From an uncultured bacterium (GTDB taxonomy: Bacteria > Fidelibacterota > Marinisomatia > Marinisomatales > UBA1611), in contig CBFIBM010000001.1 in the NCBI GenBank assembly GCA_965660855.1, positions 256,001 through 320,000 on the forward strand: DNA of 64,000 nucleotides, in the 5' to 3' direction. The translations under genes and the position numbers were made by a program. Below, piece after piece: positions 2,098 through 40,179 of this stretch. Below the pieces are notes generated by a model. It saw nothing but the letters and a program-made list of their open reading frames with translations. It made no database searches and was not told where the DNA came from. Within the stretch, counting starts at the first letter, position 1; every line of letters begins with the position of its first letter.

Positions 2098-3231
2098 ATG
2101 AAAATACTTTTGTTAATTTTATTGTTAATGTCAAAAATTCAAGGACAGAAACTAGATGCAATTGACATTAATTTAAGAAACCTTAATGATGTCTTAGAAA
2201 CTGCACAAAGATCTTCTCAAAAAGTATTTGTTGACGATTTTACAGGCCTTTTGTGACCATACTGTCCCTCTGCGAGTTTCGCAATTTCAGAAATGTTAGA
2301 TTTATATCCAGAAACTTTGATTAGTGTCGAGTGGCACAGCTCAGGTTTTACTCCAGGAAATTCAGATTTTGATATACCAGCATATTCTACCAGGGCAGCG
2401 TTGTACAATGTAGGAGGTATTCCTCATACTCAATGGAATGGCGTTGTTTCAACTGTTGGTGGGTATCCAAATGGTAACTGGCAAGCCTTTATTGGAGAAT
2501 TTACAAATACCTATAATAGTATGGTTGGAGAAGAAACTCCATACAATATTGACATAAACGGTTACGCGGGTAATACTGTGAATTACGATGTTACGATTTC
2601 AATGGATTCTGATATGAGTAGCTCAAACCAGAAAGTTGATGTCTTCCTTGCTGAAGATAATATATGGTCTTATTGGAGCGGCGCAAGTTCATATCATAAT
2701 GCAAGATTTGTAGCAAGGGAATGGCTTTCTTCGGAGTATCTGAGTATCAGCAGTGCCGGCCAGAGTGAAACTTTTTCTGGTTCATTTGAATACAATGGAA
2801 ATTGGAATAGTGATAGCCTTTTTTTAATTGCTATTGTTCAAAACTATTCATCAAAACAAATTTATCAAGCCTCAAAAGTTAATATAAATGATATGGATCC
2901 GGATATTGATGATGATGGTATTTTGAATAATACTGATAATTGTATTGAAGATTACAATCCTCAGCAAGAAGATATTGATAACGATCAAATAGGTGATGCT
3001 TGCGATCCATGTAATAATTTAATTTATACTCTAGGCAACCCAAATGGTGATACAAATATCAATGGAGATCCCCTCATTGACATCATGGATGTCTTAACCC
3101 TTGTAGATTATCTTGCATTTGATCAAAATGAAAATATTTGCCAGGAACCAACTCTAAATATAAATCAAGATAATCATGTTAATATCGTTGATGTAATAAA
3201 TCTTGTTCAACTGATTCTTAATGGTGCATAA
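2098..3231 (+). CDS. Putative selenoprotein: Omp28-like thioredoxin-fold exported protein (UxxC) with TSP3-like repeats and C-terminal dockerin-like domain
   Basis: ATG 2098 gives MKILLLILLLMSKIQGQ...KVFVDDFTGLL-TGA(2254-2256)-PYCPSASFAISE, continuing in frame into the 2293..3231 ORF. The motif matches the Omp28-type 'v.vedFTg.wC.yCP', and 'YNVGGIPH' is the cis-Pro loop. The tail has DIDDDGILNNTDNC..CDPC and duplicated D/N-x-N-x-D..I.D dockerin loops. Confidence 0.85.
2257..2290 (+). promoter_or_regulatory. Candidate bacterial SECIS hairpin
   Basis: TGCGA(2271-2275)-GTT-TCGCA(2279-2283) is a perfect stem with a G-first loop 19 nt after the in-frame TGA. Confidence 0.65.
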
Positions 3232-3733
3232 TTTCTTAATAAAACCACTATTAAAATTTGTTTTTTTTAGTTCAGTTTTCTTTTCTTTTGCTCTTGCAAA
3301 AAAAGTTCCTGATTTAAATATTAAACTTATTGATGGATCAAAGACTACAATTCTAGAGCTTGCAGAAGATGGTCCATTATTAATTGATTTTTGGGCAACT
3401 TGGTGTGTTCCATGCAAAAAAGTGATGAAACATTTAAATCAATTTCATCTAAAATATGATGATCAAAATTTTAAGGTTTTAATGATTAATACAGATAGTC
3501 CTAGGTCTTTTGGAAAAGTAAAATCATTTATAAGATCTCAAGATTATAAATTTTATGTAGGGTTAGATCCTAACCAAATTACAGCCAGAAAACTTGATGG
3601 ATTAGTTATGCCTACTCTTATTTTAGTTGATGCAGGTGGGGAAATAACTTGGAGACATCAAGGTTACTCACCAGGTGATGAAAAAGAAATTGAAAATCAG
3701 ATTGAATTATTACTAAGTAAAAATACTAAATGA
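3221..3733 (+). CDS. TlpA/ResA-family thiol:disulfide oxidoreductase (exported)
   Basis: Signal peptide, LIDFWATWCVPCKK motif and MPTLILVD cis-Pro loop. Confidence 0.9.
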   Translation: MVHNFLIKPLLKFVFFSSVFFSFALAKKVPDLNIKLIDGSKTTILELAEDGPLLIDFWATWCVPCKKVMKHLNQFHLKYDDQNFKVLMINTDSPRSFGKVKSFIRSQDYKFYVGLDPNQITARKLDGLVMPTLILVDAGGEITWRHQGYSPGDEKEIENQIELLLSKNTK

Positions 3734-5760: not shown

Positions 5761-6645
5761 GTGAAGAATTATATCTTAAGCATTCCTTTAGCAAAATTAA
5801 TTTTTATTCTATCTATTATTTTATCAAATACTATTTATCCTCAAATAGATATAGGTTCAATATCTCCTAATTTCACTGCTCCTGTATGCGCAAACGGTGA
5901 TCTCGAGTTATTCAACTTGTACCAACAAACTAATGGCAGTTTTAATGGTGGTGATTATAAAGTAGTATGGATCAATTTATTTACTTCTTGGTGACCAAGT
6001 TGCCAAGTGGAGGCTCCACTATCAGAAGAAATATGGCAAGAATATTTAAGCGGAGGGGAAGAAAAATTAGTTGTTATGGCAGCTGGGTTTGATTGGCATC
6101 AGCCTTATAGCTGTGAAGAATGGTCAACTGCATTTGGTATAACATACCTAATGGTAGATGATACAAATAATGAAGCATGGAATATTTATGGTGATGGCTA
6201 TATTCCGCATAATGTAGTGTTAGATCATAACATGCAGGTTCTATATACAAGTTCAGGATTTAACTCAAATGAAATAAAAGATGCAATCGATCTCGGCCTA
6301 TCTTATGTTCCAAGAGATTTAGATTTAGATGGAATTAATGATAACATAGATAACTGTGATGATATTTATAATCCTAATCAAGAGGATGTTGATGTAGATG
6401 GCATCGGTGATTTATGTGATAATTGCGATAACTATAATGTATTTATTTCTGGAAATACTGATGGTGGTTTAGTAAATGGAATTCCCATTTTAGATATTTT
6501 TGATGTGTTGAACCTAGTTGATATTGTTTTATTGGATGAATCTGGTACCTGTAGATCTGATATCTCAGATTTGAATTCAGATAATAATATTAATATTATT
6601 GATGTGATATTTCTTGTACAGGGGTTGTTAAATGGTGAATTTTAA
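5761..6645 (+). CDS. Putative selenoprotein: exported redoxin (UxxC) + TSP3-like repeats + dockerin-like domain
   Basis: ORFs 5761..5994 and 6007..6645 are in the same frame and joined by a single TGA (5992-5994), reading INLFTSW-U-PSCQVEAP. Paralogues at 13932 and 15002 read FTSWCGFC and FTSWCAYC. Confidence 0.9.
5995..6039 (+). promoter_or_regulatory. Candidate bacterial SECIS hairpin
   Basis: AGTGGA(6006-6011)-GGC-TCCACT(6015-6020) stem with the loop 17 nt after the TGA. Possible lower stem TTGCCA(6000-6005)/TGGCAA(6034-6039). Confidence 0.7.
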
Positions 6646-6757: not shown

Positions 6758-9700
6758 ATGAATATTTTTAAAAAAATGACCTTCTTCCTTCTGTTTTTTT
6801 CCTTAATTAAAGGTCAAGGTGATTATTCATTTAAAAATATTTCAGTAGAAGATGGACTTGCTGAAAGTACTGTAAAGATAATCTATGAGTCAAAACAAGG
6901 TTTTTTATTTTTTGGAACTGAAAATGGTCTTGATATTTTTGATGGTTATAAATTTAAAAACTATCATATGGATTCATTCGATAATGAATCAATTCTTGGA
7001 AATAAAGTTTCAGCTATTTACGAATCAAGTAATAATTTGATCTGGGTAGGAAGTGAGCTAGGATTTAGTTCATTTAATCCTTCAACACAAAAATTCAAAA
7101 GACCGTCATTAAGTAATAATAATATTACAAATCCAGAAAAAATTACAGAAGATGAAAGTGGGAAAATCTGGATTAAAGAGGCTCAATCTAGCCGTTTATT
7201 TAAATATGATTTTAATAAAGATATTCTTGAATGTATTTCATGTGATCAAATGAGCATCCTTTTTAATCAAACCATAAATATTCTACACAAATCGAATAAA
7301 GGTGCTTTGTGGATTGGTACTGATAAAGGTCTTTATTTTTATGATATTAATGATAAATCTATCAGGCCGATTGAATCAAAATATTCCTTAAGCATTAATG
7401 AGCCATATTATATTACATCAATTGAAAATGGATCAGATTCCATTTTATGGATAGGAACAAAACAAGGTCTTATCAAAATTGAAGAAAATAATAAGAGTCA
7501 AATTAAGATTTTTAAGAATTCGGAGGTTGAAAATTCTATCGTTTCTAACAAGATAAATGATATTAAATGGGATAATCTTAGGAATGAGTTATGGATTTCT
7601 ACTGTGGATGGAATTTCAAAATATTCACCTGAACTAAATTCTTTTTCTAACATTCAAGTAGGTCCGTTTGCTAATAGCATAATAGAAAATGATGTTACGG
7701 ATATTTTGATTGCTGAAAAGTCTGGAACTTTATGGTTTAAAACCAGAAACCGCTTTGGAATAAATAGTTTTAAAGCAACATTCAATGAATTTGAGGGGCC
7801 GGATACTTCAATTATGCATTTTGAACATGATCCTATTGATCCATTTTCTATTGCTGACAATGATATAACAAATTTTATTGAGGATAGAGCTGGCCACGTC
7901 TGGATAGGAACACGACAAAATGGGATAAGCTTTTATTCATTTTTGAAGCCTAAATTCTCATTGCTTGAATATGATCAAGAAAATGAATGGGGCCTCAAAA
8001 GTAATAAGATTTATTCAATTACAACCGATTCTTATGGTATGATGTGGGTTGCAACAGGGTTTGGATTAGAAAATATTTCTTCGGATGGTATTAGAGATTT
8101 TGAATTTGAAAAATCTTTTATTGAATCCAACCATGTCATGGATTTAGAGTTAGTAAATGATCAATATTTATGGGCGGCAACTGAAAATGGAATTCTTAGA
8201 ATTGATGTATTATCAGAAGAAATTATTCGATTTAACACCTCTCAAAATGTTAATAAAAAAAGATTAATTTCTGATAATTTTATTAGAGACCTGCTTATAA
8301 CAAAAAATGGTTCTATTTGGGCGGGGACAAAATCAGGAATTACAATAATAGATACAGTTGATTTAAGTGCTGTCAGTTTTAGCTCAGATTTTACTGCTAG
8401 GGTATTATACCAAGACGAAAGTGAAAATATATGGATAGGAACAGATTATAATGGATTATATCAAATACCATATGAAATTATTTCTGATCTAAAAAAAGAA
8501 GATATTTTTGAAGTAGAGGGTCATGTTTTTGACTCAGAGTTTTCTGATGGTCTATCATCTTCACAAATAACCTCTATAACTCAAGATACGACTGGTGTTT
8601 TATGGGTTGGTACAGCTAGTGGTTTAAATAAGTATATTGAAAGTGAAGATACCTTCTATCATTATTTCATGAAAGATGGTCTACCTAGTAACTATATTAC
8701 GGGTGTTATTGTAGATCAAAGTAATAACCTGTGGATAAGCTCTAAGAACGGTATTTCTTTCTTTAATCAGAAAGACTCTTCTTTTATAAATTATGGGGTT
8801 TCCGATGGAATAGGGAATATTGATTTTCATCAACATTCTTTTGAAAAAAGTATTGATGGAAACATATATTTTGGTGGGCCAAAAGGAATAACTAAAGTAA
8901 ATCCCTCAAATTTACAATATAATGAATACAAACCTCCTTGTTCAATTCTACGCATTAAAAAAACACTTTATGATGGATCTATTACTGAAGTTTTTCCTCA
9001 AAAAAGTTCGAAACTAGAAATTCAAAAGATTAATATAAATCATAAAGTAAAATCATTCTCAATCGATTTTGTTGCTCTGAATTATCATAAAACTATAAAG
9101 AATGAATATAGATATAAACTTCAACCTTTTGATAGGAATTGGGTAGAATCGGGGAATATTAAATTTGCATCTTACAATAATTTAGGTAGAGGAGAGTATA
9201 CCTTTTTTGTGCAAGGATCTAACGATGATGGATTATGGAGTCAGTCTGCTGTTTTAGATTTTAAATTTATTCCTCATCCTCTTTTAAGTTATGGTGCTTT
9301 TGGAGTCTATCTTGCACTAATTATATTTGGTGTATACTGGCTAGTTAAACAAAGAATATTAAAACAGCAATCTGAGGCTGATGAAAAGAGAAGAGCCGAA
9401 GAATTAGAGCAAGCTCGGGAATTCCAGATGTCACTAATACCTCAAAATCCTCCTTCTATCAGCGGATTTGAATTTGCTTTGCATATGAAAACATCTACGG
9501 AGGTTGGTGGTGATTATTATGATTTTTTTCCTCAAAAAAATAATGTTCTTTATGTAGTTTGTGGTGACGCCACTGGGCACGGTTTAAATGCTGGTATGAT
9601 GGTTTCAATTACAAAAGCAGGATTATTCGGATCAGACTTTAGTAATCCAGGTATTACAACTACTAGGTTAAATCAAACAATAAAAGCTATTGATCTTGGA

Positions 9701-10105
9701 ACAACAAGGATGTCTTTGAATATGGCTAAGTTTGAAAATGAATCCTTTGAGTTTACATCAGCTGGTATGCCTCCTGCATATTTATTTCGTGGTGAAACAA
9801 AGGTTGTAGAGGAAATTTTAATTCCTGGTTTGCCTCTGGGGTCTATGAAAAATGCTACATTTGATTCTGAGATATTTGAATTTAAAATAGATGATGCGTT
9901 AATCTTAATTTCAGATGGACTTCCTGAATGTGTTGACCATAAAGATGAAATGTTAGATTATGATGCAGTAAAGAACTGTATTGAAAAAAATGGGCATAAA
10001 TCAGCAAATGGCATTAAAGATGCCTTGATAAAATTGGGTGATGACTGGATGGACGGTCTAATGAATGATGATGATATAACATTGGTAATTATAAAGAGGA
10101 AATAG
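6758..10105 (+). CDS. Membrane sensor: two-component-type beta-propeller repeats + Y_Y_Y domain + TM + SpoIIE/PP2C Ser/Thr phosphatase
   Basis: Repeated 'LWIGT..GL' propeller motifs, YRYKL..FD..W/ASYNNL.RGEYTF (Y_Y_Y), a TM near residue 850, then EVGGDYYDF, GDATGHG, LISDGL and DDDITLV PP2C motifs. Confidence 0.9.
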   Translation: MNIFKKMTFFLLFFSLIKGQGDYSFKNISVEDGLAESTVKIIYESKQGFLFFGTENGLDIFDGYKFKNYHMDSFDNESILGNKVSAIYESSNNLIWVGSELGFSSFNPSTQKFKRPSLSNNNITNPEKITEDESGKIWIKEAQSSRLFKYDFNKDILECISCDQMSILFNQTINILHKSNKGALWIGTDKGLYFYDINDKSIRPIESKYSLSINEPYYITSIENGSDSILWIGTKQGLIKIEENNKSQIKIFKNSEVENSIVSNKINDIKWDNLRNELWISTVDGISKYSPELNSFSNIQVGPFANSIIENDVTDILIAEKSGTLWFKTRNRFGINSFKATFNEFEGPDTSIMHFEHDPIDPFSIADNDITNFIEDRAGHVWIGTRQNGISFYSFLKPKFSLLEYDQENEWGLKSNKIYSITTDSYGMMWVATGFGLENISSDGIRDFEFEKSFIESNHVMDLELVNDQYLWAATENGILRIDVLSEEIIRFNTSQNVNKKRLISDNFIRDLLITKNGSIWAGTKSGITIIDTVDLSAVSFSSDFTARVLYQDESENIWIGTDYNGLYQIPYEIISDLKKEDIFEVEGHVFDSEFSDGLSSSQITSITQDTTGVLWVGTASGLNKYIESEDTFYHYFMKDGLPSNYITGVIVDQSNNLWISSKNGISFFNQKDSSFINYGVSDGIGNIDFHQHSFEKSIDGNIYFGGPKGITKVNPSNLQYNEYKPPCSILRIKKTLYDGSITEVFPQKSSKLEIQKININHKVKSFSIDFVALNYHKTIKNEYRYKLQPFDRNWVESGNIKFASYNNLGRGEYTFFVQGSNDDGLWSQSAVLDFKFIPHPLLSYGAFGVYLALIIFGVYWLVKQRILKQQSEADEKRRAEELEQAREFQMSLIPQNPPSISGFEFALHMKTSTEVGGDYYDFFPQKNNVLYVVCGDATGHGLNAGMMVSITKAGLFGSDFSNPGITTTRLNQTIKAIDLGTTRMSLNMAKFENESFEFTSAGMPPAYLFRGETKVVEEILIPGLPLGSMKNATFDSEIFEFKIDDALILISDGLPECVDHKDEMLDYDAVKNCIEKNGHKSANGIKDALIKLGDDWMDGLMNDDDITLVIIKRK

Positions 10106-10116
10106 GTTAAACTCTC

Positions 10117-10683
10117 ATGATAAAAAATACAATTAGAATAATCTATTTGCTTATGTTTCTTTCACTTGGATATTCTCAAGAAAAAATACCAAACTTGAGA
10201 CTTAAAATGTTGAATGGAAAATATGCAAAAGTAAATGATTTTTTAAAAGATGGACCAATGATTATAGATTTTTGGGCTACTTGGTGTGAGCCATGTAAGA
10301 AACAGATGAAATATCTTAATATATTTAATAATCATTTTAAGGAAACTGGATTTAAAGTACTTGCTGTTAACACTGATACACCTAAAAGTATGAGTAAGGT
10401 TAAATCTTATGTCAGAACAAAAAAGTTTGAGTTTGACGTTGCAGTGGACCCGAATAGTCAGGTTAAAAAGAAAATGAAGGTTTTGCAAATGCCTACAACT
10501 ATTTTAGTTGATAAAACTGGACAAATAGTTTTTAGACATCAAGGATATTTACCTGGCGATGAACATGATATTCTTCAAGCTATTTATGGTTTAATGGATA
10601 AAAACAATACTAGTTATGAAAAACTTGATTTGAATAAGAACAATAAAAAACAAATTAAATCCGGTGCTGAAGTTGATTTTTAA
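10117..10683 (+). CDS. TlpA/ResA-family thiol:disulfide oxidoreductase (copy 2)
   Basis: Signal peptide, IIDFWATWCEPCKK and MPTTILVD. Clear paralogue of 3221..3733. Confidence 0.9.
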   Translation: MIKNTIRIIYLLMFLSLGYSQEKIPNLRLKMLNGKYAKVNDFLKDGPMIIDFWATWCEPCKKQMKYLNIFNNHFKETGFKVLAVNTDTPKSMSKVKSYVRTKKFEFDVAVDPNSQVKKKMKVLQMPTTILVDKTGQIVFRHQGYLPGDEHDILQAIYGLMDKNNTSYEKLDLNKNNKKQIKSGAEVDF

Positions 10684-12946
10684 TAAGCAAATAATTGTAT
10701 CATTCATATTGATACTTAGTAATTCAGATTTATTTTCCCAAATAACAGCTGGTGGGAACTCTATTCTAAAATTTGGCGAGAGTAAAAATGAATTTCACTA
10801 TTCAGAGGTTTTGCTGAATATGAACTTATCAAATGATTATTTGGAGACTTGGTTTCAATTCGAATACAGCAAACCACCTGAGATTGGGATGAGTATTAAT
10901 GGTCTGAGAAAATTTAGGATTGACTATTCTGATGGCCCTTTCGAATTATCTGTTGGAGATATATATAAAATTTGGGGGAGGGGGTTAATATTGAACCAGT
11001 TTGATGATCAGGATGTAAATCTTGATAATGGTTATAGAGGATTAAGTTTCAGTATAATAAAAGATAACTATACCATTGATTTAATATCTGGAATTTCAAA
11101 TATACATAGAATTAGTCAAGATTACTGGCAAAATATAGATCAAGAATCAAGAAAGCCAAATCATTTATCAAAACATTCTATGTTTGGTAGTGATTTAGAG
11201 TTTTTTCAAGGACCTTTTTCTCTAGGTTTATCCTTTCTTCAAAGTAGAGAGAATCATCCCATCAATAATCCGATCACGATGATGGCAGATAGTATTAATG
11301 TAATTCATCGAATAAATGGTTTAAGAGCCGGATATGAAGGCGGGCGTCTCGCCTCCTACTTAGAATTATCTGGAAAAAATACGCTATTATCTCAATCCGA
11401 AAGTCAAATATATAAGGAAAATTTTAATCCTTATAATGGCTTCAGTCTTTTTGGAAATATTAATTATTATTTTCAAAGTCAGCTTCTAGACGGATGGTCA
11501 TTAACAATGGAGTATAAAAACTACAATACAACAAAATTAAATACATCAGATAAAGACAATTTTGTTAAAAATTATGATATGAATTTAATTTTTACTCAAC
11601 CCCCGACTGTTTTAAGGGAACATAGCAGTGTATTTTTAGCTAGACTTATTCCTCAGGTAAATTTCAGCGATGAAGTAGGTTATCAATTTTCTCTTGTTGG
11701 TCCTATTATGGGGATAGGGTATTTTACTCTCAACTATCAAGCCGCAAGTAGAACAAACTTATGGGGTAAAACATACCCAGATACTGTAAATGCTATATTA
11801 TCTACTAAATGGGAAAGTGATAGTGCAGTTACCGTATTGCCATTCAGTGAAAAATCCGGACTGCCATACAATGAACTTTATCTTGAAATGGAAGGTTACA
11901 TAAAAAATATTAGGTATCAATTTGGCTTTGGTATCACAAACAAAATACCTGAATATCATTCGTCGTATAATAGTGGAAAGAATGGTGTCTGGGATAATGG
12001 TGAAGCGTTTGATGATTTAAATGGCAATAATATTTATGATATTGGAGAAAATTTTACTGATCTTTACAGTATAGTAAATGAAAAAATTGATAATAAAACT
12101 GTTACAGCCATTACAATACCTTCTCTTCTAAATTATAATTTAGGAAATGGGTGGAGTATTGATTTAAAATATGAATTTCAAAAGATTAAAAGTGGTACAA
12201 AATATTATAATTCATTGTCCTCTGATGAAGTATTCTATGATAGTAATGGAAATGGTGTTTGGGATATTGCAGAGTTATTTGAAGATAGTAATGGTGATGG
12301 TATTTGGAACCAAGCTGAAGAGACATGGTATGATTTATGGCAAAGTGGTTTAATACCCGATGAACAATTATACTACTATGATACTGACGGCGATGGTTTA
12401 TTTTCGGAGGGAGAATATTTTACTGATGCTGATGGAAATGGCATGTGGAATTCATCAGAAAACTTAATTGATGAAGATGGTGATGGAATATGGGATGATT
12501 CAGAGTATTTGGAGGATCTAAATAATGATGGAGTCTGGACAAAAAGTGGAGTGTATGAAGATAGGTATCAATCTAATTTTTATTCAAATGATTCAAAAAG
12601 TGGGTTGAGTATTCCTGAAGATTTTCAAAATAATCATCTGATATCACTCGGAATAGGAAAATCGCCTTATTGGTCACTATCTTTAACGGTTGAATCAAGT
12701 TCAACCTATGAATATGGTCCATTAAAAAATAGTGTTGTTAATCCTCTAGAGAGTTTCTTAGGTAATATTATTGATTTAAATAATAAGTGGATTGCTTTAG
12801 AATTTATGGTGAATATAAATTCAAATACTAGGCTCGATTTAATGTACGGTACGCAAAGGGGAGGGATTATTTGCAGTAATGGAATTTGTAGGTATGTTGA
12901 ACCTTTCGATGATGGATTTAAATTAGCGTTATCAACAGTATTTTAA
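10664..12946 (+). CDS. DUF6029-like outer-membrane protein (copy 2) with inserted acidic DxxGxGxWD repeats
   Basis: Shares GDIYKIWGRGLILNQFDDQ, QPPTVLREH and C-terminal GGIICSNGICRYVEPFDDG with 3730..5682, and ends in Phe. Confidence 0.7.
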   Translation: MLKLIFNKQIIVSFILILSNSDLFSQITAGGNSILKFGESKNEFHYSEVLLNMNLSNDYLETWFQFEYSKPPEIGMSINGLRKFRIDYSDGPFELSVGDIYKIWGRGLILNQFDDQDVNLDNGYRGLSFSIIKDNYTIDLISGISNIHRISQDYWQNIDQESRKPNHLSKHSMFGSDLEFFQGPFSLGLSFLQSRENHPINNPITMMADSINVIHRINGLRAGYEGGRLASYLELSGKNTLLSQSESQIYKENFNPYNGFSLFGNINYYFQSQLLDGWSLTMEYKNYNTTKLNTSDKDNFVKNYDMNLIFTQPPTVLREHSSVFLARLIPQVNFSDEVGYQFSLVGPIMGIGYFTLNYQAASRTNLWGKTYPDTVNAILSTKWESDSAVTVLPFSEKSGLPYNELYLEMEGYIKNIRYQFGFGITNKIPEYHSSYNSGKNGVWDNGEAFDDLNGNNIYDIGENFTDLYSIVNEKIDNKTVTAITIPSLLNYNLGNGWSIDLKYEFQKIKSGTKYYNSLSSDEVFYDSNGNGVWDIAELFEDSNGDGIWNQAEETWYDLWQSGLIPDEQLYYYDTDGDGLFSEGEYFTDADGNGMWNSSENLIDEDGDGIWDDSEYLEDLNNDGVWTKSGVYEDRYQSNFYSNDSKSGLSIPEDFQNNHLISLGIGKSPYWSLSLTVESSSTYEYGPLKNSVVNPLESFLGNIIDLNNKWIALEFMVNINSNTRLDLMYGTQRGGIICSNGICRYVEPFDDGFKLALSTVF
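12238..12545 (+). repeat. Coding repeat: ~6 acidic D-x-[ND]-G-[DN]-G-x-W/F units (putative Ca-binding loops)
   Basis: DSNGNGVWD, DSNGDGIWN, DTDGDGLFS, DADGNGMWN, DEDGDGIWD, DLNNDGVWT. Confidence 0.8.
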
Positions 12947-13015
12947 TCTAGCTTTTAATGAAAAATATCAATAAATTGAAAATAATTACATAACTTCAAT
13001 TAAAACAAAACTTAC

Positions 13016-13909
13016 ATGAAAAAATTCATTTTAAAGTTTTTTATTTTATTTTCTATAACATTTCCCTCATTTGTTATATGTCAGGGTCAAATTATACAAG
13101 ATTTTTCCTACCCAATTTGTGCTAATGGTGATGGTGAAACAGTTTTAAATTTTTATGAATCATTCAACGGATCAGTAAACAATTGTGAGTATAAAGTAGT
13201 TCTTGCTACACTTTTCACCTCCTGGTGACCATCCTGTATGACGGAGGCTCCGGTTCTAGAAGAAATATTTAACACCTACAAAGATCAAGGATTAGAAGTT
13301 GTTGCATTTGGAGCCGACTGGTATCCTGATGGACCCTATACTTGTGAAGGGTGGGATCAACAATTTAATCTTTCTTACCCAATACTTGATTTTGAGACAG
13401 GATTAGAAAATTGGTATTGGGAGTCAGCTCCGTATGATTTATACCAGCCCGAGTTAGGTTGGGGGTTACCTTTTAATGTAATAATAAATCATGAGATGGA
13501 AGTTTTATGGGGTGCAGCAGCCAACTTTGAGGGTGATGTAATGGCTGAGGCTATAGGTGTTATTGAATCAGCTCTCCAAGCGTTGAATGAAGAATTTCCC
13601 GATGGTCCAGGGGATGATGATGGAGATGGAATAGCAAATGGTTGTGATCCTTGTCCAGAATCTCATTTACACCATCCTGGAAATTTTGATTTTTCTCAGG
13701 TTTATTCACATTTTGATAATGGTGCAGTCTTTGTACCATCTGTAGATATTTTTGATTTAATACTATTTTCAGATTATATAATGGATGGTGGCTACCTAAC
13801 TGATTGTATCTTAGAGGCGCACGATATTACCGGGGATGGTTATGTCAATCCTTTCGATGTTATAGCATTAGCTCAATTAATTCTTGGAAATGATTGGGGT
13901 TTAAATTAG
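13016..13909 (+). CDS. Putative selenoprotein: exported redoxin (UxxC) + short TSP3-like motif + dockerin-like domain
   Basis: ORFs 13016..13228 and 13238..13909 are in the same frame and joined by one TGA (13226-13228), reading ATLFTSW-U-PSCMTEAP. Homologous throughout to 5761..6645. Confidence 0.9.
13229..13260 (+). promoter_or_regulatory. Candidate bacterial SECIS hairpin
   Basis: CGGA(13242-13245)-GGC-TCCG(13249-13252), with the same GGC loop and 17-nt spacing as at 6006-6020. Confidence 0.65.
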
Positions 13910-13931
13910 CCTGATTATTTTCTTCTTATAA

Positions 13932-14855
13932 ATGAAATTATTTTATCATATTTTTCAGAAGAGTATTATTATTTTTGTTTTAATTTATACTTCTACCACT
14001 TCAGAAATGCAAGGTCAGGTAGCTGTAGGTGACACTATAAACCCTTCTCAATTAAGTTTACCAATTTGCGCTAATCAAGAACCCTTTGGCCCTTCAGAGC
14101 AATTTTTTGATATTTCGATTTATAATAACCCAGATCAAGATTCACAATCAAAAGTAATTTTACTTTCTATTTTTACATCATGGTGCGGATTTTGTCAAAC
14201 TGAAGCTACACACTTACAAGATTTACATACTGAATTTGCCGATGATGGATTGTTAGTTGTTTCAGCTGGAGGAGATTGGGGTTTTCCATATGATTGTGAG
14301 GGTTGGTCTAATGAATTTGATTTAAGTTATCCAATATTAGATTTTATGAATCCCTTTAATCCTAATTGGGGAGAAGCGCCATTAATGACCTATTTAGGAG
14401 TAGCTGCAATACCCTTTAATGTAATTATAGATCATAGGAACATAGTCTCAAATATTATAATAGGATATAATGAGGAAATATTGAACCTAGCTATTGAAGA
14501 TGCTCTTGAAGCAATGATTCAAGATAGTGATGGTGATGGAATTAATTCTGAAGCAGATAACTGTCCATCAATATTCAACCCAGGTCAATCTGATTTTGAC
14601 GGTGATGGCATAGGAGATGTCTGCGATGCTTGTGATAATCTTAATATATTTGTTAACGGAAATCTTAATGGTACATTAAATCTTGATCAAGAACCAACCA
14701 TTGATATTCTAGACTTATTGTTACTGGCCGACTTCCTTGAGGGATTACCAGATCAAAATATCTGTCATGAGGCTGCCTCTGATATTAATGAGGATTCTAA
14801 TATAAATTTACTTGATGTATTTTCACTTGCCTATCAAATTACTGGGCAAAATTAA
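13932..14855 (+). CDS. Exported redoxin (CxxC, Cys paralogue of the selenoproteins) + TSP3-like repeats + dockerin-like domain
   Basis: Signal peptide, PICAN, IFTSWCGFCQTEA, IPFNVIID, DSDGDGINSEADNCP..CDAC and a dockerin-like tail. Confidence 0.88.
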   Translation: MKLFYHIFQKSIIIFVLIYTSTTSEMQGQVAVGDTINPSQLSLPICANQEPFGPSEQFFDISIYNNPDQDSQSKVILLSIFTSWCGFCQTEATHLQDLHTEFADDGLLVVSAGGDWGFPYDCEGWSNEFDLSYPILDFMNPFNPNWGEAPLMTYLGVAAIPFNVIIDHRNIVSNIIIGYNEEILNLAIEDALEAMIQDSDGDGINSEADNCPSIFNPGQSDFDGDGIGDVCDACDNLNIFVNGNLNGTLNLDQEPTIDILDLLLLADFLEGLPDQNICHEAASDINEDSNINLLDVFSLAYQITGQN

Positions 14856-15001
14856 AATAGGATAAAGGCCTTGAGCAAAGTTATACTTTTATCGTTGGTT
14901 ATTTATTATCAAATTTTGAACCTATATAAAAAGGTATCTATTTTGTATAATCAGGTTCTATTTACAAAATTTTAACAAAAATTATTTTAAAAAGATCAGT
15001 T

Positions 15002-15916
15002 TTGTTAAAAAAAAATTTTAAAAAAATAAATTACCTCAAAGTATTTACAATACTTTTATTGCAATCATTATTATATAGTCAAATTGCAATTGGTGATACT
15101 GTCTTTAATCTGCAATTACCAATATGTGCTAATTCTGATCCTGATATTCACGAACAGCAATATTTTGATATAAATGATTATAATGGTTTTCCCGAAAGTA
15201 CTATCAGCCCAAGGGTAATTCTTCTTGCAATCTTTACTTCATGGTGTGCGTATTGTCAAACTGAAGCGTTCCTTTTAGAAGATTTACATGAGGAGTATAT
15301 TGATGATGGATTATTGGTCCTTTCTGCTGGTGGTGATTGGGGCTTCCCATATGATTGTAGTGGTTGGGCAAATTCATTTAATTTAACTCATCCAATATTA
15401 AATTTTATGACAACTAATGTGGAAAGTTGGGAAGATGCTCAATTGATAAACTATTTGGGAGTTGGTATTGTACCACATGCTGTTGTAATTGATCATCGAA
15501 ATATTCTTTCAAACACCATTGTGGGTTATAATCCTAATGCTTTGAATCAAGCTGTTGAAAGTGCGCTTGAAACAATGGCTCAAGACCTTGATGGTGATGG
15601 AGTTTTATTTGATGATGATAATTGTCCTTCAATTCATAACCCAGAACAAATAGATATTGACAATGATAACCTTGGTGATGAATGTGATTTATGTGATAAT
15701 CTTAATAATTTTGTAATTGGCAATCTAAATGGTACACTAGATCAATTTCAGCAAGCAACCATTGATATTTTTGATTTATTGTTATTAACTGATTTTTTAG
15801 ATAATTCTTACGAGAATAATGTATGCTCTAACGCTGTATCCGATATTAATGGTGATAATTCTATAGATCTAATTGACGTATTTACGCTTGCTTATATTAT
15901 TTCAGAACAAAATTAA
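15002..15916 (+). CDS. Exported redoxin (CxxC) + TSP3-like repeats + dockerin-like domain; tandem paralogue of 13932..14855
   Basis: TTG start, PICAN, IFTSWCAYCQTEA, shared SAGGDWGFPYDC, DLDGDGVLFDDDNCP..CDLC. Confidence 0.88.
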   Translation: MLKKNFKKINYLKVFTILLLQSLLYSQIAIGDTVFNLQLPICANSDPDIHEQQYFDINDYNGFPESTISPRVILLAIFTSWCAYCQTEAFLLEDLHEEYIDDGLLVLSAGGDWGFPYDCSGWANSFNLTHPILNFMTTNVESWEDAQLINYLGVGIVPHAVVIDHRNILSNTIVGYNPNALNQAVESALETMAQDLDGDGVLFDDDNCPSIHNPEQIDIDNDNLGDECDLCDNLNNFVIGNLNGTLDQFQQATIDIFDLLLLTDFLDNSYENNVCSNAVSDINGDNSIDLIDVFTLAYIISEQN

Positions 15917-15974
15917 AAAAAAATAAATTTTTTGAAAGGAAGTCTGTAATTTCAATCCTATTCAAAGAGTATAT

Positions 15975-16048
15975 GCGCCCGTAGCTCAACTGGATAGAGT
16001 GTCTGGCTACGGACCAGAAGGTTGGGGGTTCGAATCCTCCCGGGCGTA
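15975..16048 (+). tRNA. tRNA-Arg (anticodon ACG, read as ICG); CCA not encoded
   Basis: Acceptor GCGCCCG/CGGGCGT, D-arm TAGCTCAACTGGATAGAG, anticodon arm TCTGG-CTACGGA-CCAGA (ACG at 16009-16011), T-arm GGGGG-TTCGAAT-CCTCC. Confidence 0.97.
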
Positions 16049-16056
16049 CTGACGAC

Positions 16057-16325: not shown

Positions 16326-16608
16326 AATTATATTTAATGTAGAATTTTTGTAATATTCATATCTTGAGTAATTTATTTTTTTTATAAAGTTTTTTAAATG
16401 AAAATAATCATTAATGATTATTCAATCTATTTACTTATTAATCTTGATTAATTCTTTTTCGTTTGCTCAGGAAACATGATTTATTTAAAATTTGCCATAA
16501 ACTGACTATTGAGCTTATATTCTAGTAGAGTAAAGTACTCACGAGGTAAGTGAAAAAGTTAAATAATTGAAGATCACACGGTGCGGTGTGTCTTATATGG
16601 AGTTCAAC

Positions 16609-17403
16609 ATGTCGAAAAGAATGAATAGTTCTATTCTTATTCGTGCAGTTCAAATTATAATTTGGACTAGCCTATTTCTACTTATTTTAACCCCCACATC
16701 CCTAATATATGGTCAGGATGCTGAAGATGATGTTGAAGAATATTTTGGAGATGATGATGAATATTTAGATGATGAAGAATACCTTGATGATGAAGAATAC
16801 CTTGATGATGATGAATATGACGATGAATATGACGATGAAGAATATGATGATGAAGAATATGACGATGAAGAATATGAGGATGAAGAATATGAGGATGAAA
16901 TTCTTGAGGATAGTGCTGAAAATTTAGGTTACACAATTGACCTCGCTCTCGGTTCACCGCGATTCACAAATAGAGTACTCATGGATTGGACTTCTGCAGT
17001 CGACCTTCGGGCAAGTGTAGAGTTTCCAATTTTAATGCAATTGCTTGGTGCAAATTTTAGATTTGGTGCTGAAGTTGGTTCTTTCAAGTTTGAGAATGCT
17101 ATTCCTAAAGAAGAGGCAGATGGAAGCCTCCTTCAATTAGGTGAGACAATAAGTGGCATTACTGCTATGGGTATTGTTTCGTTTCCAGCAGGACCGGGAA
17201 AAATTAAATTTGGTGCTGGTCTTGTAGGCTCTTCTCCAGGTTTTTCCATGGAAGCTTCATACGGTATACGCATAGGTGAAATGGTAGAGATAAGAGGTGG
17301 GATTAGATCTACAGAAGCATTAAATACGAAAACTTCTGAATCCAATGAACTTGGTAGGGCGGGTTGGATGGATGGACAAATTGTTTTAGGTGTAAACCTT
17401 TAA
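16609..17403 (+). CDS. Exported protein with long Asp/Glu/Tyr repeat and probable small beta-barrel C-terminus
   Basis: ATG 16609 is preceded by GGAG (the ORF track starts at TTG 16567). Signal peptide ending IYG-Q, an acidic tract, then amphipathic strands ending WMDGQIVLGVNL. Confidence 0.7.
   Translation: MSKRMNSSILIRAVQIIIWTSLFLLILTPTSLIYGQDAEDDVEEYFGDDDEYLDDEEYLDDEEYLDDDEYDDEYDDEEYDDEEYDDEEYEDEEYEDEILEDSAENLGYTIDLALGSPRFTNRVLMDWTSAVDLRASVEFPILMQLLGANFRFGAEVGSFKFENAIPKEEADGSLLQLGETISGITAMGIVSFPAGPGKIKFGAGLVGSSPGFSMEASYGIRIGEMVEIRGGIRSTEALNTKTSESNELGRAGWMDGQIVLGVNL
16750..16899 (+). repeat. Imperfect tandem repeat (18-nt then 12/15-nt units) encoding (DDEEYL)n(DDEEY)n
   Basis: GATGATGAAGAATACCTT-like units followed by GA[CTG]GATGAAGAATAT units. 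Confidence 0.9.
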
Positions 17404-17413: not shown

Positions 17414-20400
17414 ATGTATAAATCATATAATTCTAAGTATTTATCTGTCGTATTATTCCTGTTTTTTCAGTCGGGTTTGATATTTGGACAAGCTATTGAT
17501 TTTTATCCTGCTGGTCAAGTAGCAGATGGTGATAATATTTACAATATTAATTCAACAGTTGCAACTAATGGTCCTTTTTCTGGGTCAAATGCCGGTGGAG
17601 TATGGGTAACGGGATCAAGTCTTGAATACACTTCATGGGATGTTCAAATACAATTTGATGGTGGGGCGTTTACTACTATAAACGGTGATGGTTCAAATGA
17701 TGATAATGCCTCTGCTAATGGGCAAAGTTTTGGAAGTGCAACTGTTCGCCCAACTGCTGATGGTGATCTTAATATCTGGTTTAGTCATGCAGAGATTGCG
17801 GCCACCTCAGGTTATCCTGGAACTGTTGATGGGATTAACATCTCATTTAGAATAAGAAAAGTAAGTGATGGTAGTACATTACCAACTTCGCCACAAGATT
17901 ATGCCTTTGATTTAGTTGCTCCGACTCTTACTTCTGCCAGTATAGCTTCAGATAACGATAATACAAGTTGGGCTAAGTCTGGCGACAATATTACCATAAC
18001 GTTAACTGCACCAAGTGGAAGTGACGGAGAAAATTTAGGTACCTCAGATCAATGGTCAACATCAATTCAGGGTCTTGGTGCTTCTGTATCAGGTTCAGGG
18101 CTTGTTTGGACTGTCTCAGCAACTGTAAGTAGTCATCCGGAAGGGACTGTTTATTTTCAAATAACATATTACGATGCATATGAAAACCCAGGAACTGTAC
18201 TAACCGCTGTAGTGGGAAATACTTCACAAGTAATAATAGATAAGACTCCCCCTAATATTTCAGCTACAATTCTATCAGATGATAATACAAATAATACACA
18301 ATATTTAGCGACTACTGGTGACGACGTTACTTTAACAATTACTGCAACTGATGATGATGGAGGTGCAGAGATTATTCAAGTTCCAACCGTAACTATTGAC
18401 GGAAATACTCCTACTGGAAGTAATCTTTCTGTTCCAGCTAGTTCCTACACTGCTTACAGAACGATGCAAGCAGGTGATACGCAAGGAGATGTTGGCTTTG
18501 CAATTACTGGTATAAAAGATAGAGCCGGTAATACGGCTACCAATGTAACTGCTGTTACATCTGGTAGTAATGTTCGGTTTGATTCAGCTGTTCCAACAAT
18601 AAATTCTCTCACAGTTGCATCAAATAACGCCATTGCGAGTAATAAAGCTACCATAGGAGATGTTATAACTATTTCCTTTGCATCAACTGGTAATGAATCT
18701 TTACAAACTCCTGTTGTTACTATCGATGGTGAAGATGCGCTTGAGCAACAAAATGGGAATGCTTATACTTGGACAGCAACAAAAACAATGGATGCGGAAG
18801 ATACGGAGCGACTTACGCAGTTCTCATTGAATTTTAAAGATTTAGCTGCTAACAGTGGTACCGCTTTAGATCATGGTGATATTACAGCTGGTACACTTGT
18901 TGATTTTGACGCAACGCCTCCAACAATTAATTCGGAAACTGCTTCCACCACAAATTCCTACGATAACACGCTAGCAATTTTAAATCAGGTCATCTCTATT
19001 GATATTGTAAGTGCTGAAGAACTCTATAGTATTAAGGATGTTCTTATCGCAGGGAAAGCGGTAGCTGATCAAGTGACTGCAGCAACAAATGTAACAGATT
19101 GGACTATAAATCATGTAGTGGATGGTACGGAAGCGGATGGGTATGTTGGTTATTCTTACACAGCTGTTGATTTAGCTGGAAATGAGACAAATGTAGTTAA
19201 ATCAAGTAGTAGTATTCGTATCGATAACTCAAAACCAGTGCTAAATACAGTTACCATTATTTCAAATAATACAAATACTGCTTACGCAAAAATTGGTGAT
19301 GTTGCTACGATAAATATTGTTGCAAATGAGGCTCTCCGCATTAGCCCTGTTGTTTCGATTCAAGGGAGAACTGCGACTATCGCTGCTGCAGGAGATGGCA
19401 TCACCTTTACAGCAACTCATACCTTTGATAATACTGATACTGAAGGTCTCGTAGCTTTTCAAATTGATTTTGAAAATGCTTTTGGACTTGCTGGAGACAG
19501 AATTATTGATGATGGTACAGGTTCCACAACTAATAATGGCGCAACCGTAAGGTTTGATAGAACAGCTCCTACATTAAACCCTGTTACTGTAACATCAAAT
19601 AATAATAATTCTTCATATGCGAAAGTAGGTGATATTGTTACGTTATCTTTTACTTCTATTGAAGCGATTCAAGATCCACCAACAGTCGTTTTCCTAAGCA
19701 CACCGGGAGATAATCGAGCTGGGACTGTTTCTGGAAGTGGTACAAGTTGGAATGCAACATATACTATGCAAAACTCTGATACAGAGGGAGATGTTGATTT
19801 TTACATTGATTTTGTTGATATCGCGGGGAATACGGGTGTAAGAGAAACAAGTCTTTCATCTGGAAGTGAAATTATTTTTGATCGTGATATACCCGAACTC
19901 ACAACTGTAGATATATCCTCGAGTAATGCAAATCCAGCTCTATCAAAAGTTGGTGATGTTATAACCTTAGCTATTACTTCAGATGAAGATATTCAGATAC
20001 CGACTGTTACTATTGCAGGAACCACAATAGCTAGTGAAAATATTACCGGTAATGATGGTGAAAGAAACTTCACAGCTACATATACGATGCAAAGCTCAGA
20101 CAATACAACAGCTGCTATTGGTTTTACAATTGATTTTGCAGATCTTGCAAATAATTTAGGAACTCAAAAAACAGCTATAGTAAATGATGGAGATGGACTT
20201 GGAGTTGGTTTTGACAAACAGGCGCCAGGTTTAAATATTGTTACTATACTTTCGAATAATGATAATAGAGCAGGAACAGGAAATAAAACTGGTTTAGCAA
20301 TAGTAAATGATATCATCACTTTAAACTTTGAGTCAGACGAAGATTTAAAAACTGGAGTGACTCCGGCTGTCCTTATTGCGGGAAATGCTGCAACGGTTGT

Positions 20401-23400
20401 TCGTAATGCAAATAATGATTTTACTGCCACTTATCAAATGGCATCAGATGATGACACAGATGGAGCTAATATTACTATTTCTATTTCTAACCTTGTTGAC
20501 CCATCTGGGAATACTCCTGCTAGTGCAATAACAACAACTACTGATGGTTCGTATGTTAAATTTGATAAAACAAACCCAATCTTGGGTTCTATTACTATTG
20601 CATCTAATAATTTAAATAATACACTTGCTATCGAGGGTCAAGTTGTTACATTGACTTTTGCATCTAGTGAAGATATCGGAACACCAACTGTGAATATCTT
20701 GGGTGGTGCTGCTACAGTTACTAATGTTGCAGACTCAAGTAATTGGGTTGCCACAAAAACTGTTGGTGGCGCTGATAGCGAGGGTGTAGTAGGATTTAGT
20801 ATTGCTTATTCTGATAAGGCAGGAAATAACGGAACGACGAGAACTGATTTAACAGGCGGAGGTGATCCTGTTACTGTTGATCTAACAGTACCTCAAATTA
20901 CCAAAGCTTCTATAGCTACAAATAATTCCACAGGCGATGAATTATCGGTTCCTGGTGATGTCGTAACTCTTGAAATAGAGACCTCAGAGGCTATTCAGAC
21001 ACCGACTGTTACTATTGCCACACAAACAGCTACTGTAAGTCAAGGTGCAGATGCATTAACGTGGACAGCCACATACGCGATGACAACAAATGAATCAAAT
21101 GGAGCAGTTCCTTTCGCAATTGATTTTACGGATCTTTCCGGAAACCAAGGAAATGGTGGGGCTTCCTATACCGCCTTACTAAATGACGATGATGGAAACT
21201 CTGTCAGTTTTGATAAAACTCAGCCAGAGTTAGATTATGTAAATATACAATCAGATAATACTTTGCCTGCTTATGCTAGAGTTGGATCTGAAGTAACTTT
21301 AGGGTTCGAGTCTAACGAAGCATTAAGCTCATATGCTGTAACTATTAATGGAAATACAGTTGCAGTTTCTTATGATGCTGTTGCAGATAGATATAGCGCT
21401 GCATATACCTTAGTTGACGGAGATTCGGAAGGGGATGTTACGTTTACAATTGATTATACAGATTTAAATGGTTATCAGGGCGTTCAGCAAACGGAAACTT
21501 TAGATGATTCTAATGTAGAGTTTGATAAAACTCCTCCACAGATGGATGTACTCACTTATTCTTCAAATAATGCAAATATGACATCAATGGCAAAAGAAGG
21601 AGATGTTATTACTGTAAATCTTGAAGCGGATGAAAATTTACAATCTCCAACTATTACCCTAGCAGGAAATGCTAGCGGAACTCCAGTTGTTGGAGGTACA
21701 AATGCTATTTGGAGTTCGGCTTACACTGTTCCATCTCTGTCTGATGGTGTTGTTGCATTGCAAGTTGATTTTAAAGATTATGCAGGTAATTCTGGTACTA
21801 GGCAGGTTGCGCCGTTGACAGGATCTGCTGTGACCTATGATGGTACTGCTCCGACACTTGGAACAGTAACCTTTGTAAGTAATAATAGCTATTCAACTGC
21901 AAAAGCAAAATTATTTGATGAGGTAACTCTTACAATTGCTGCAGATGAAAGCATTCAAACACCAACTATTACAATTTCAGGGACTTCTATAACTCCAACG
22001 ATGGGACTAAATTCTGAAAATTGGGTTGCTACATACATTTTACAAGAATCCGACGCAGAAATAGATATTCCATTTACTGTAGATTTTAATGATTTAGCTG
22101 ATAACGCTGGAACTCAAGTAATTGCTACTACCGGTGGTGAGGTCGTTAATTATGATAATACAGCTCCTGTAACTACCGGACTTGTTGTTGATTTGAAAGA
22201 TGCATCGGACACAGGGTTATCAAATAGCGATAATATCACAACTGTTTTAACTCCTACATTTGAAATTCAAAATTTAACATCAGGTCCTGCTTCTGCGACA
22301 GGAGAGAAGTTAATTCTTAATATTAATGGCACGGACTATGATTCTCTGACAATCACTGTTAATGCAATGAGTATATCTGTCCCTGATGCAACCCCGCTTA
22401 CAAATAATGTACTTCCCTATACGGTGACAGCATATATAAGAGATCTTGCTGGTAATTTATCTCTTGCATCCACATCCTCTATTTCATTAACAATTGATAC
22501 TGAAGCACCATTAACAAATGCTGAAATAAATCTTGTTGATGGGTCAGACTCCGGATCTGATAATGCTGATAATATTACAAGTGACAATACGCCCACTTTA
22601 GAAGTGAATGGATTAGCTGATGGAGAGATTTATACTGTTATTGTTGAATATGATCTTGAAGGTGGTGCATCTGACCAAGTAGTTGTTAATGATCTTATGA
22701 GTCAAGCAGTAACGGATCAATTTACTACAACCGCATTAAGTGATGGGGTTTATACTTTTACGTATAAATTGGTAGATACAGCGGGAAATACTTCATTGGA
22801 AAGTGATCCTCTTGCAGTAACAATTGACCGAACACAACCTGCAATATCAAGCGCTCCTGATCTTGTTGATGTGTTTGATACAGGTACTCTAGATAGCGAT
22901 AATCTTACAAATCTCGAAAATCTTCAATTTAGTGTATCAAATTTAGTTGTGGGTGAAACCTTAACAATATATAACGATGCTGATGATAGTGTCTTAGGTA
23001 GCAAAACAATAACAGCAGTAACAGAGACTATTACGATAAATGGTTTTACGGAAGGTGCACATACTGTTTACGCACGACTAACAGATTTAGCAGGAAACCA
23101 GTGTGGTGAATCTGGAGCACTTAGTTTTACTGTAGATATAACTGCAATCGATGTTACTGGTATTACTCTCGATCTAAATACTGCAGATGACTCTGGTACT
23201 AGGTCTGATGACGATCTTACAAATATTAACACACCAACTTTTACATTAGCAACGGTCTCTATTAATGATATCGTACATCTTTACGCAGATGGCAGTTTAG
23301 TTGGTTCAGCAACTTCTATTGGATCATCAGTTGAGGTAACAAGTAGCACGCTAGTTGATAATCCGTATGAAATGAGTTTTACCGTGACAGATTATGCTGG

Positions 23401-40155: not shown

Positions 40156-40179
40156 ATAATACAATAAACATGAAGGACA

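Follow-up and report, generated by a model that had tools for sequence, protein, structure and literature searches.

Background

Selenoproteins of a marine family with the redox motif UxxC, in which U denotes selenocysteine (Sec), have been catalogued since 2008. Table 2 of the survey by Zhang and Gladyshev (PMC2398784) lists them as 'Prx-like 1', under pfam00578 and with 225 selenoproteins in 37 samples, and reads of the family are given in Dataset S1 of the same paper under '#Prx-like 1'. In the section 7 table of a 2026 review (PMC13188914), a 'Prx-like thiol:disulfide oxidoreductase' (PF00578; UxxC, UxxU) is entered as predicted with high confidence. The present study concerns a gene at 13016..13909, on the plus strand of a window of 64,000 nucleotides (the whole stretch of DNA analysed, positions 256,001 to 320,000 of contig CBFIBM010000001.1, assembly GCA_965660855.1) from an uncultured bacterium of the SAR406 (Marinimicrobia) group. 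The gene is a new member of the family catalogued since 2008, and comparative sequence evidence identifies its in-frame TGA as a genuine Sec codon of what is predicted to be an exported thioredoxin-like redox protein. That the gene encodes a selenoprotein is thus correct and mostly not new.

The target shares with 'Prx-like 1' of the Global Ocean Sampling (GOS) reads the UxxC motif, here U-P-S-C, and a similarity at the level of pfam00578. Moreover, the motif of its orthologue group, 'WUGYCWGEAP', occurs eight times in Dataset S1 of PMC2398784. By eye, reads of this dataset match three orthologues from another genus (loci L019-L021) over their whole length, including the insertion described below. 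Two of the 'Prx-like 1' reads, JCVI_READ_1096619 and 1103647, have the FTSW-U-GYCWGEAP site of these orthologues and share with them both the Trp/Tyr-rich insertion and the reduction of the TSP3 segment, while JCVI_READ_1018099 and 1011732, also filed under 'Prx-like 1', are of the types of two other Sec copies of the genome, redoxin 1 and the gene at C1:123935. The target differs from the listed GOS orthologue type in being only 49-51% identical to it, and its own motif, W-U-PSC-M, has no occurrence in the text datasets of PMC2398784. Neither a taxon nor a gene context nor a selenocysteine insertion sequence (SECIS) is given for the subfamily in Table 2 and section 9 of that paper. A term search of PMC13188914 returned no occurrence of Marinimicrobia or SAR406, and among the matches listed by a literature search combining selenoprotein with Marinimicrobia, neither term stood in a title or abstract.

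Results and discussion

A selenocysteine codon at a conserved redox motif

The gene and the elements concerned with its decoding are the following.

13016..13909, plus strand: reading frame of the Sec redoxin (297 codons, then a TAG stop), with TGA 13226-13228 read as selenocysteine
13226..13228, plus strand: UGA Sec codon (residue 71), which opens the U-x-x-C redox motif
13234..13259, plus strand: SECIS-like hairpin, core GGAGGCUCC at 13243-13251, loop GGC at 13246-13248

The TGA is the sole one in frame within the open reading frame (ORF) and occupies residue 71, in the context LFTSW-U-PSCMTEAP. Homologous ORFs, 33 in number, were collected from 30 loci (L018-L047) of related genomes through a match to the protein at E<=1e-8. 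TGA stands at exactly the W-U-x-x-C codon in 30 of the 33; the remaining three have Cys, and two of these three are the window's own paralogues. In alignment A2, the column of U71 is occupied by Cys in the paralogues 13932..14855 and 15002..15916 and in locus L045. A homologue at E<=1e-10 was found in 34 of the 54 genomes of the same taxonomic family, and in 13 of the 15 genera.

The paralogues lying in the window are listed here.

5761..6645, plus strand: paralogue redoxin 1, a Sec protein (TGA 5992-5994, LFTSW-U-PSCQVEAP) and third gene of the other cassette
13932..15916, plus strand: two tandem Cys paralogues without the hairpin, 13932..14855 (FTSWCGFC) and 15002..15916 (FTSWCAYC)

In a preliminary description made from the window alone, the target and the copy at 5761..6645 had been held to carry TGA at the same motif position in otherwise diverged sequences with intact downstream frames, a coincidence regarded as implausible for independent nonsense mutations. 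Each part of this is borne out. The codon is residue 71 (13226-13228) in one copy and residue 78 (5992-5994) in the other, at the identical position of the motif; the two proteins share 39% identity in the genome search and 37% in alignment A2; and both frames stay open downstream up to a TAA or TAG stop. The genome's Sec machinery, the alignment of Sec with Cys, a covarying hairpin and low ratios of non-synonymous to synonymous substitution rates (dN/dS) concur in making these TGAs Sec codons and not nonsense mutations.

A covarying hairpin downstream of the codon

The motif GGAGGCTCC, located 14 nt past the TGA, is common to all 31 Sec copies and is lacking in all three Cys copies; the Cys paralogues have GAAGCT.. 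in its place. The core GGAGGCUCC is likewise invariant in the Sec copies. From an alignment of 31 sequences (A1), a hairpin was proposed that has 11 pairs, a single bulged base and the loop GGC; of these pairs the target forms four core pairs, one G-U pair and three lower pairs. Across the alignment, 83.3% of the cells concerned are paired, compared to 73.5% in shuffles, and changes on both sides are seen in 6 of the 11 pairs. The covariation score reaches 0.301 against 0.151 in shuffles, a value attained by none of 500 shuffles, the structure having been derived from the same 31 sequences that were scored and these being related by descent. When the 3' partner was slid by one to three columns, the score fell to 0.03-0.12.

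The SECIS of E. coli fdhF is a stem-loop just past the UGA within the coding sequence, with a loop starting with G and a bulged base. The hairpin found here is alike in that it lies within the coding sequence and starts only a few nucleotides past the UGA, that its apical loop begins with G, and that its consensus has a bulged base (C, alignment column 19) below the upper stem. It departs from the fdhF type in its triloop, GGC, which is closed by an invariant GGAG/CUCC stem that also codes for the conserved E-A-P, and it matches no Rfam model.

Selenocysteine machinery and genetic code of the genome

The genome (2.09 Mb in 81 contigs, 84% complete) encodes a tRNA-Sec at C25:5796-5890, recognised both by Rfam (63.3 bits; cut-off 47) and by ARAGORN (anticodon tca), together with selA (423 bits), the adjoining selB (303 bits) and selD (389 bits). 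All four components exceed their curated cut-offs.

A different account of the codon would be that TGA is reassigned genome-wide to one of the standard amino acids (Trp or Gly), as in codes 4 or 25, with no involvement of selenium. The genome is AT-rich, at about 31% G+C, and some full-length homologue entries in the databases (P0006, P0208, P0210, P0224) have W at the position, as a code-4 translation would give. Nevertheless, TGA is the terminator of 229 of the 1291 stop-to-stop frames in the genome that reach 200 codons or more, the genes of the window pack normally under table 11, and this very gene truly ends at a second TGA in L023, L028, L041 and L042. In addition, the tRNA with the UCA anticodon is tRNA-Sec by both Rfam and ARAGORN, and a Trp in the first position of the CxxC redox site would abolish the site. 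Genome-wide recoding is therefore extremely improbable, and decoding as Sec is preferred.

As a side observation, selD (G000:C19:7427-8353) has one in-frame TGA of its own, so that the SelD of this genome is probably a selenoprotein itself.

Selection, independent copies and gene calls

The orthologues L019-L021 are 49-51% identical to the target and share its insertion and its reduced TSP3 segment. Between L020 and L021, dN/dS by the NG86 method is 0.23 upstream and 0.17 downstream of the TGA; between L019 and L020 the values are 0.09 and 0.115. Comparisons of the target with these orthologues give 0.17-0.20 downstream of the TGA, at saturated dS. The gene is under purifying selection on both sides of the codon: the ratios in relatives are similarly low on either side, about 0.09-0.23, and neither frameshifts nor relaxed selection, previously named as what would speak against a Sec codon, were found past the TGA.

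Two independent metagenome contigs with 98% identity retain the TGA and the identical next 50 nt, and differ from the target by seven synonymous and five non-synonymous changes in one case and by five of each in the other, with no indels and no stops. Such retention, considered together with the 30 of 33 homologous ORFs that hold TGA at the codon, goes far beyond chance. Contigs from metatranscriptomes (four libraries from four studies) also span the TGA and show no difference at it; record X15 (1507 nt) covers 12600-13958, and a record of 451 nt over 13115-13565 has no differences at all. A search with the single protein for related loci in a collection of genome contigs returned no relative.

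In public protein collections the target is represented by P0003, a piece of 223 residues that is 99% identical and starts at the Met past the active site, and orthologues are cut in the same way (P0004, 82%; P0005, 79%). The complementary N-terminal pieces, of 69-74 residues and ending in ...FTSW or ...FTAW, are found as well (P0202, 70 residues; P0226, 69; P0229, 74). One entry of 284 residues, P0012, appeared to be a chimera of a GPx-like N-terminus with the Sec redoxin family and was set aside. A scan of NCBIfam returned no model covering the Sec redoxin family.

These pieces are what would be expected if the TGA were a stop, yielding a peptide of 70 residues and a separate protein of 223 residues from the ATG at 13238, or marking a pseudogene in decay, and the weakness of the hairpin in the target would agree with this. 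Yet either piece alone would break the thioredoxin fold at its active site, the Cys homologues are contiguous, dN/dS is equally low upstream and downstream, and the TGA is held at its codon across genera. With the hairpin covarying around an invariant core and the Sec machinery complete, termination at this TGA is very improbable, and the Sec reading is retained for what follows.

Fold class of the protein

The regions of the protein are as follows.

13016..13084, plus strand: predicted signal peptide, residues 1-23, MKKFILKFFILFSITFPSFVICQ, on the basis of the sequence itself and of alignment A2
13097..13600, plus strand: thioredoxin-fold domain of TlpA/ResA/DsbE type, residues ~28-195 (Pfam, structural model, Foldseek)
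13406..13474, plus strand: Trp/Tyr-rich insertion ENWYWESAPYDLYQPELGWGLPF, residues 131-153, up to the invariant Pro152 (13469-13471), from alignment A2
13613..13654, plus strand: single remaining TSP3-like calcium-binding repeat with CxxC, DDDGDGIANGCDPC, residues 200-213, from alignment A2
13733..13885, plus strand: dockerin-like C-terminal module, residues ~240-290 (Pfam Dockerin_1, NCBIfam NF045500)

A similar hydrophobic leader is present at the N-terminus of all homologues in alignment A2; that of the target is modelled as a lone helix over residues 3-14. In Pfam, the domain that follows matches AhpC-TSA (E 8.4e-6; 26.2 bits, cut-off 26) and Thioredoxin (23.6 bits, cut-off 23.5), with a further, sub-threshold match to Thioredoxin_8. 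AlphaFold modelling from alignment A2 gave a mean predicted local distance difference test score (pLDDT) of 72.9, rising to ~80-96 in the thioredoxin core. When the model was searched against the PDB with Foldseek, the top match was DsbE of Chlorobium tepidum (3gl3, E 3e-9), with a target-normalised template modelling (TM) score of 0.79-0.81, followed by Bacillus ResA with 0.75-0.79; peroxiredoxins stand lower in the list, with TM ~0.5 and large root-mean-square deviation (rmsd).

The residues invariant in the family are C35, N37, F67, W70, U71, C74, E77, G99, W102, Y108, C110, W113 and P152, the last being presumably the cis-Pro. E77 lies three residues past the second Cys, which is the spacing of C77 and E80 in the titles of ResA entries in the PDB (C74/C77/E80), and E80 of ResA is functionally important. 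The protein thus has in common with TlpA, ResA and CcmG (DsbE) the thioredoxin fold, a site of the W-C-x-x-C type with a Glu three residues past the second Cys, a cis-Pro loop and a predicted N-terminal export signal. It differs from them in having Sec for the first Cys, an extra invariant Cys pair (C35, C110), an aromatic loop of 23 residues before the cis-Pro and a TSP3/dockerin-like tail; moreover, no context of cytochrome c maturation was seen. From the model and these likenesses, the protein is predicted to work like an extracytoplasmic thiol-disulfide oxidoreductase of the TlpA/ResA/DsbE type, while standing outside the curated ResA, DsbE and TlpA subfamilies.

The name 'Prx-like 1' reflects another possibility, namely that the protein is a genuine selenoprotein acting as a peroxidase, detoxifying peroxide at the envelope in the manner of a peroxiredoxin, and not as a disulfide reductase or isomerase. 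The best Pfam match is indeed AhpC/TSA, the basis on which the 2008 survey chose that name (PMC2398784), and peroxiredoxins are present among the lower Foldseek matches. True Prx selenoproteins have a TxxU motif according to Table 2 of the survey, and the W-U-x-x-C of the target (S-W-U-P-S-C) is of the thioredoxin/TlpA type and not the T/S-x-x-C of peroxiredoxins. Sec is common in peroxidases, a general point in favour of this function. The TM scores to DsbE and ResA (0.75-0.81, against ~0.5 for peroxiredoxins), the ResA-like position of the invariant Glu and a cassette partner which is itself a TlpA-like reductase all point away from it, making a peroxidase unlikely and leaving disulfide reduction or isomerisation as the favoured activity.

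The aromatic insertion and the C-terminal tail

The two features by which the target had been set apart from its paralogue, an aromatic insertion and a shortened TSP3 segment, are both real. The insertion makes the stretch before the cis-Pro 11-13 residues longer than in the paralogue at 5761, and it is common to the orthologues L019-L021 and to the database fragments P0004, P0005 and P0013. In thioredoxin-fold proteins the stretch preceding the cis-Pro flanks the active site, and the insertion is hypothesised, from its position in the alignment, to alter substrate specificity. As to TSP3, the target and its three orthologues lack ~25 columns which in the other paralogues hold the first repeat; the paralogues match Pfam TSP_3 under its cut-off (E 1.4e-4), and P0013 combines the insertion with the full TSP3 pair.

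The tail contains the cysteines C210, C213 and C264 (alignment A2) and resembles a domain described in PMC2398784, possibly the 'Unknown_3' of Figure S1D there. Its last module is labelled dockerin-like because the Dockerin_1 match is sub-threshold (E 0.0097, 16.5 bits, under a cut-off of 22.9) and a calcium-loop pattern was recognised by eye in the second repeat only (DITGDGYVNPFD). Residues 199-290 also match positions 296-376 of NCBIfam NF045500 (E 1.9e-11), and the tail is present in six proteins of the genome, with one further weak match. NF045500 describes Omp28-related selenoproteins, of which one is encoded nearby.

2098..3231, plus strand: Omp28-related selenoprotein (NF045500, 562.6 bits against a cut-off of 200), TGA 2254-2256, GLL-U-PYCP

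The target resembles this protein in its TSP3 and dockerin-like tail, UxxC site, neighbourhood and phylum, and differs in its catalytic domain, TlpA-like and not Omp28-like, with 44 bits against the NF045500 cut-off of 200. The gene at 2098..3231 is the third selenoprotein gene of the window and has the TSP3/dockerin-like tail; under table 11 only 2293..3231 is called. It corresponds to the 'hypothetical protein GOS_C' of Dataset S2 of PMC2398784.

In other genera the redoxin has ~500 residues, and Por_Secre_tail was found at the C-terminus of four of the five long homologues scanned. The redoxin family is probably surface-directed, because relatives of other genera carry this type IX sorting domain; PorV and PorZ-like proteins are encoded in the window.

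Some further observations touch on export and docking. A cohesin partner for the dockerin-like tail gave one borderline match, C2:68962-69288 (22.2 bits), which is not used as evidence; it lies inside a frame of 1281 residues and would be a possible docking partner of marginal score. A DsbD-type gene (C2:60707-61384) is found near this match and near a weak redoxin match at 62286-62495. Following the redoxin cluster, 17414..30157 encodes a protein of 4247 residues whose C-terminus resembles, by eye, a type IX sorting tail. The PorZ-like and PorV genes are among 41954..43579 and 60849..62240, and a thioredoxin and thioredoxin reductase pair lies at 39829..41100.

A duplicated cassette with a DUF6029 protein

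A cassette formed by a TlpA-like Cys redoxin, a DUF6029 protein and a Sec redoxin occurs twice in the window.

3221..3733, 3730..5682 and 5761..6645 (the last on the plus strand): cassette 1, with TlpA-like, DUF6029 and Sec redoxin genes in this order
10117..10683, plus strand: TlpA/ResA-like Cys redoxin (WCEPC; AhpC-TSA 85 bits, Redoxin 80 bits), overlapping the start of the DUF6029 gene
10664..12946, plus strand: DUF6029 protein of 760 residues (Pfam PF19494), directly upstream of the target, a predicted outer-membrane beta-barrel

The genome has only two DUF6029 genes, both in these cassettes. Homologues of DUF6029 at about 54% identity carry Marinimicrobia names in their sources, on which the placement of the organism in that group is based. 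In 21 of the 30 loci the gene immediately preceding the redoxin is a homologue of DUF6029; among the other nine, one has an upstream flank of only 59 nt. Synteny of the entire cluster is seen in a genome from another genus (g2). Across the phylum, DUF6029 was found in 30 of the 81 genomes sampled; in all 30 phylum-wide loci (L051-L080) a TlpA-like gene lies directly upstream of it, and the third gene is mostly absent. DUF6029 did not occur among the matches listed in a separate, mixed literature search.

The DUF6029 proteins have an invariant Cys pair, C-x-N-G-x-C, near the C-terminus, and no plug domain was detected by Pfam. A model of the paralogue at 3730..5682 (pLDDT 67.9) is all-beta, with long antiparallel strands, and resembles the barrels of 22-stranded TonB-dependent receptors loosely (TM 0.31-0.45, rmsd >11 A). 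DUF6029 is accordingly described as a predicted large all-beta barrel, nothing finer being taken from the model.

Several neighbouring features were recorded in passing. The second DUF6029 copy (10664..12946) has, at about residues 520-625, an insertion of repeated D-x-D/N-G-D-G-x-W-D acidic loops with the look of calcium binding. The orthologues of this copy keep the insertion, and the first copy lacks it. Between the cassettes, directly before the TlpA-like gene, 6758..10105 (plus strand) encodes a large regulator in which Reg_prop/Y_Y_Y propeller repeats are joined to a SpoIIE/PP2C phosphatase domain at the C-terminus; it is syntenic in genome G001. A Prx fused to a distant PP2C phosphatase is reported in PMC2398784, a fusion that may represent a related link. 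Just past the tRNA-Arg at 15975..16049, an ORF at 16567..17403 that matches nothing in Pfam contains an extended acidic D/E-Y repeat (DDEEYLDDEEY...).

Origin of the cysteine paralogues

A maximum-likelihood tree of 33 rows, unrooted and with two partial rows left out, groups the target with its three orthologues (support 100/99) and the two Cys paralogues of the window into one clade (100/100). The Cys clade is a weakly supported sister of the target clade (87/76), a join for which the program gave a long-branch warning. As nearly all other rows of the tree are Sec, the simplest reading, which the tree suggests, is that a change from Sec to Cys was followed by tandem duplication. A fifth paralogue, at C1:123935-124747, is a Sec protein (FATW-U-GGC) with no DUF6029 neighbour, and its type is present among the GOS reads.

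Proposed mechanism and points against it

Taken as a whole, the findings are very probably explained by an exported, Sec-decoded oxidoreductase of the TlpA/ResA/DsbE type that would act within a redox cassette. Of this, the analysis establishes the Sec codon with its hairpin and the machinery for Sec, as well as the fold class, the action of purifying selection and the conserved neighbourhood. The UGA at 13226-13228 would be decoded as Sec by the genome's own SelA, SelB, SelD and tRNA-Sec, under the direction of the short downstream hairpin with its core GGAGGCUCC and GGC loop. The product would be a thioredoxin-fold thiol-disulfide oxidoreductase with a W-U-x-x-C-x-x-E site, followed by a TSP3 remnant and the dockerin-like tail. 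It would be exported by the Sec-dependent route and function outside the cytoplasm, the family being probably surface-exposed. There it may serve as the terminal selenol/thiol redox partner of a cassette comprising the TlpA-like Cys reductase, the DUF6029 barrel and the Sec redoxin, and may reduce or isomerise disulfides of an extracytoplasmic substrate, with the Trp/Tyr-rich loop before the cis-Pro shaping the substrate site of this subfamily.

A number of observations weigh against this explanation. The hairpin of the target is among the weakest of the family: 8 of the 11 consensus pairs are kept, the energy of the consensus structure is -1.9 kcal/mol (rank 28 of 31), and the minimum free energy over 30 nt is -4.1 kcal/mol. 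In isolation, the 65-nt stretch that follows the UGA folds no more stably than shuffles do (z = +1.41), and a stretch of 111 nt likewise gives no thermodynamic signal (z = +0.42). It is consequently the comparative evidence on which the hairpin stands, and the efficiency of Sec insertion in the target copy could be low. An Rfam scan of 5500-16500 at E<=10 returned no SECIS family, only the tRNA-Arg and chance matches. The metatranscriptome contigs can contain DNA and are silent on translation. As regards the fold, Pfam membership is marginal, with Redoxin at 22.1 bits under its cut-off of 26.6, and the NCBIfam scores are so far under their cut-offs (ResA 35.7 against 170, DsbE 20.9 against 123.15, TlpA 20.8 against 230 bits) that the protein is not counted as a member of these families. 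The structural model is unreliable in the insertion (residues 130-148, pLDDT <50) and in the linker (<50). Finally, the target has no Por_Secre_tail and ends after the dockerin-like module, so that it may reside either in the periplasm or at the surface, and what links the redoxin with DUF6029 is gene order.

Conclusions

For the target itself, the selenoprotein call adds little, its orthologue group being already among the marine reads of 2008. What is gained for the family is an organism, a SECIS supported by covariation and a structural class, which is TlpA/ResA-like and not peroxiredoxin. Gene calling still breaks these genes, into pieces of 70 and 223 residues or with W at the Sec position, and since the calls split the genes and no NCBIfam model covers the family, SAR406 annotation undercounts it.

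Of greater interest, at the level of a hypothesis, are the duplication of the cassette and the invariant association of TlpA with DUF6029. The order of the cassette, the invariant gene pair, the invariant Cys pair of DUF6029 and the DsbD-type membrane electron carrier encoded at C2:60707-61384 together suggest, tentatively, that Marinimicrobia could possess a relay in which electrons would pass from the DsbD-type carrier to the periplasmic TlpA-like protein, then to the Cys pair of the DUF6029 barrel and finally to a Sec redoxin at the surface. If such a relay exists, the redoxin would be held at the surface by its calcium-binding TSP3/dockerin-like tail, or exported by the type IX route in other genera, and would bring reducing power to extracellular substrates, with paralogues tuned by the loop before the cis-Pro. 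In that case, the pairing of TlpA with DUF6029, seen in all 30 of the loci sampled, would provide a first hint at what DUF6029 (PF19494) does. The cassette in this way offers a hypothesis that can be put to the test, both for an outer-membrane family so far uncharacterised and for the use of selenium in exported proteins of abundant deep-ocean bacteria.

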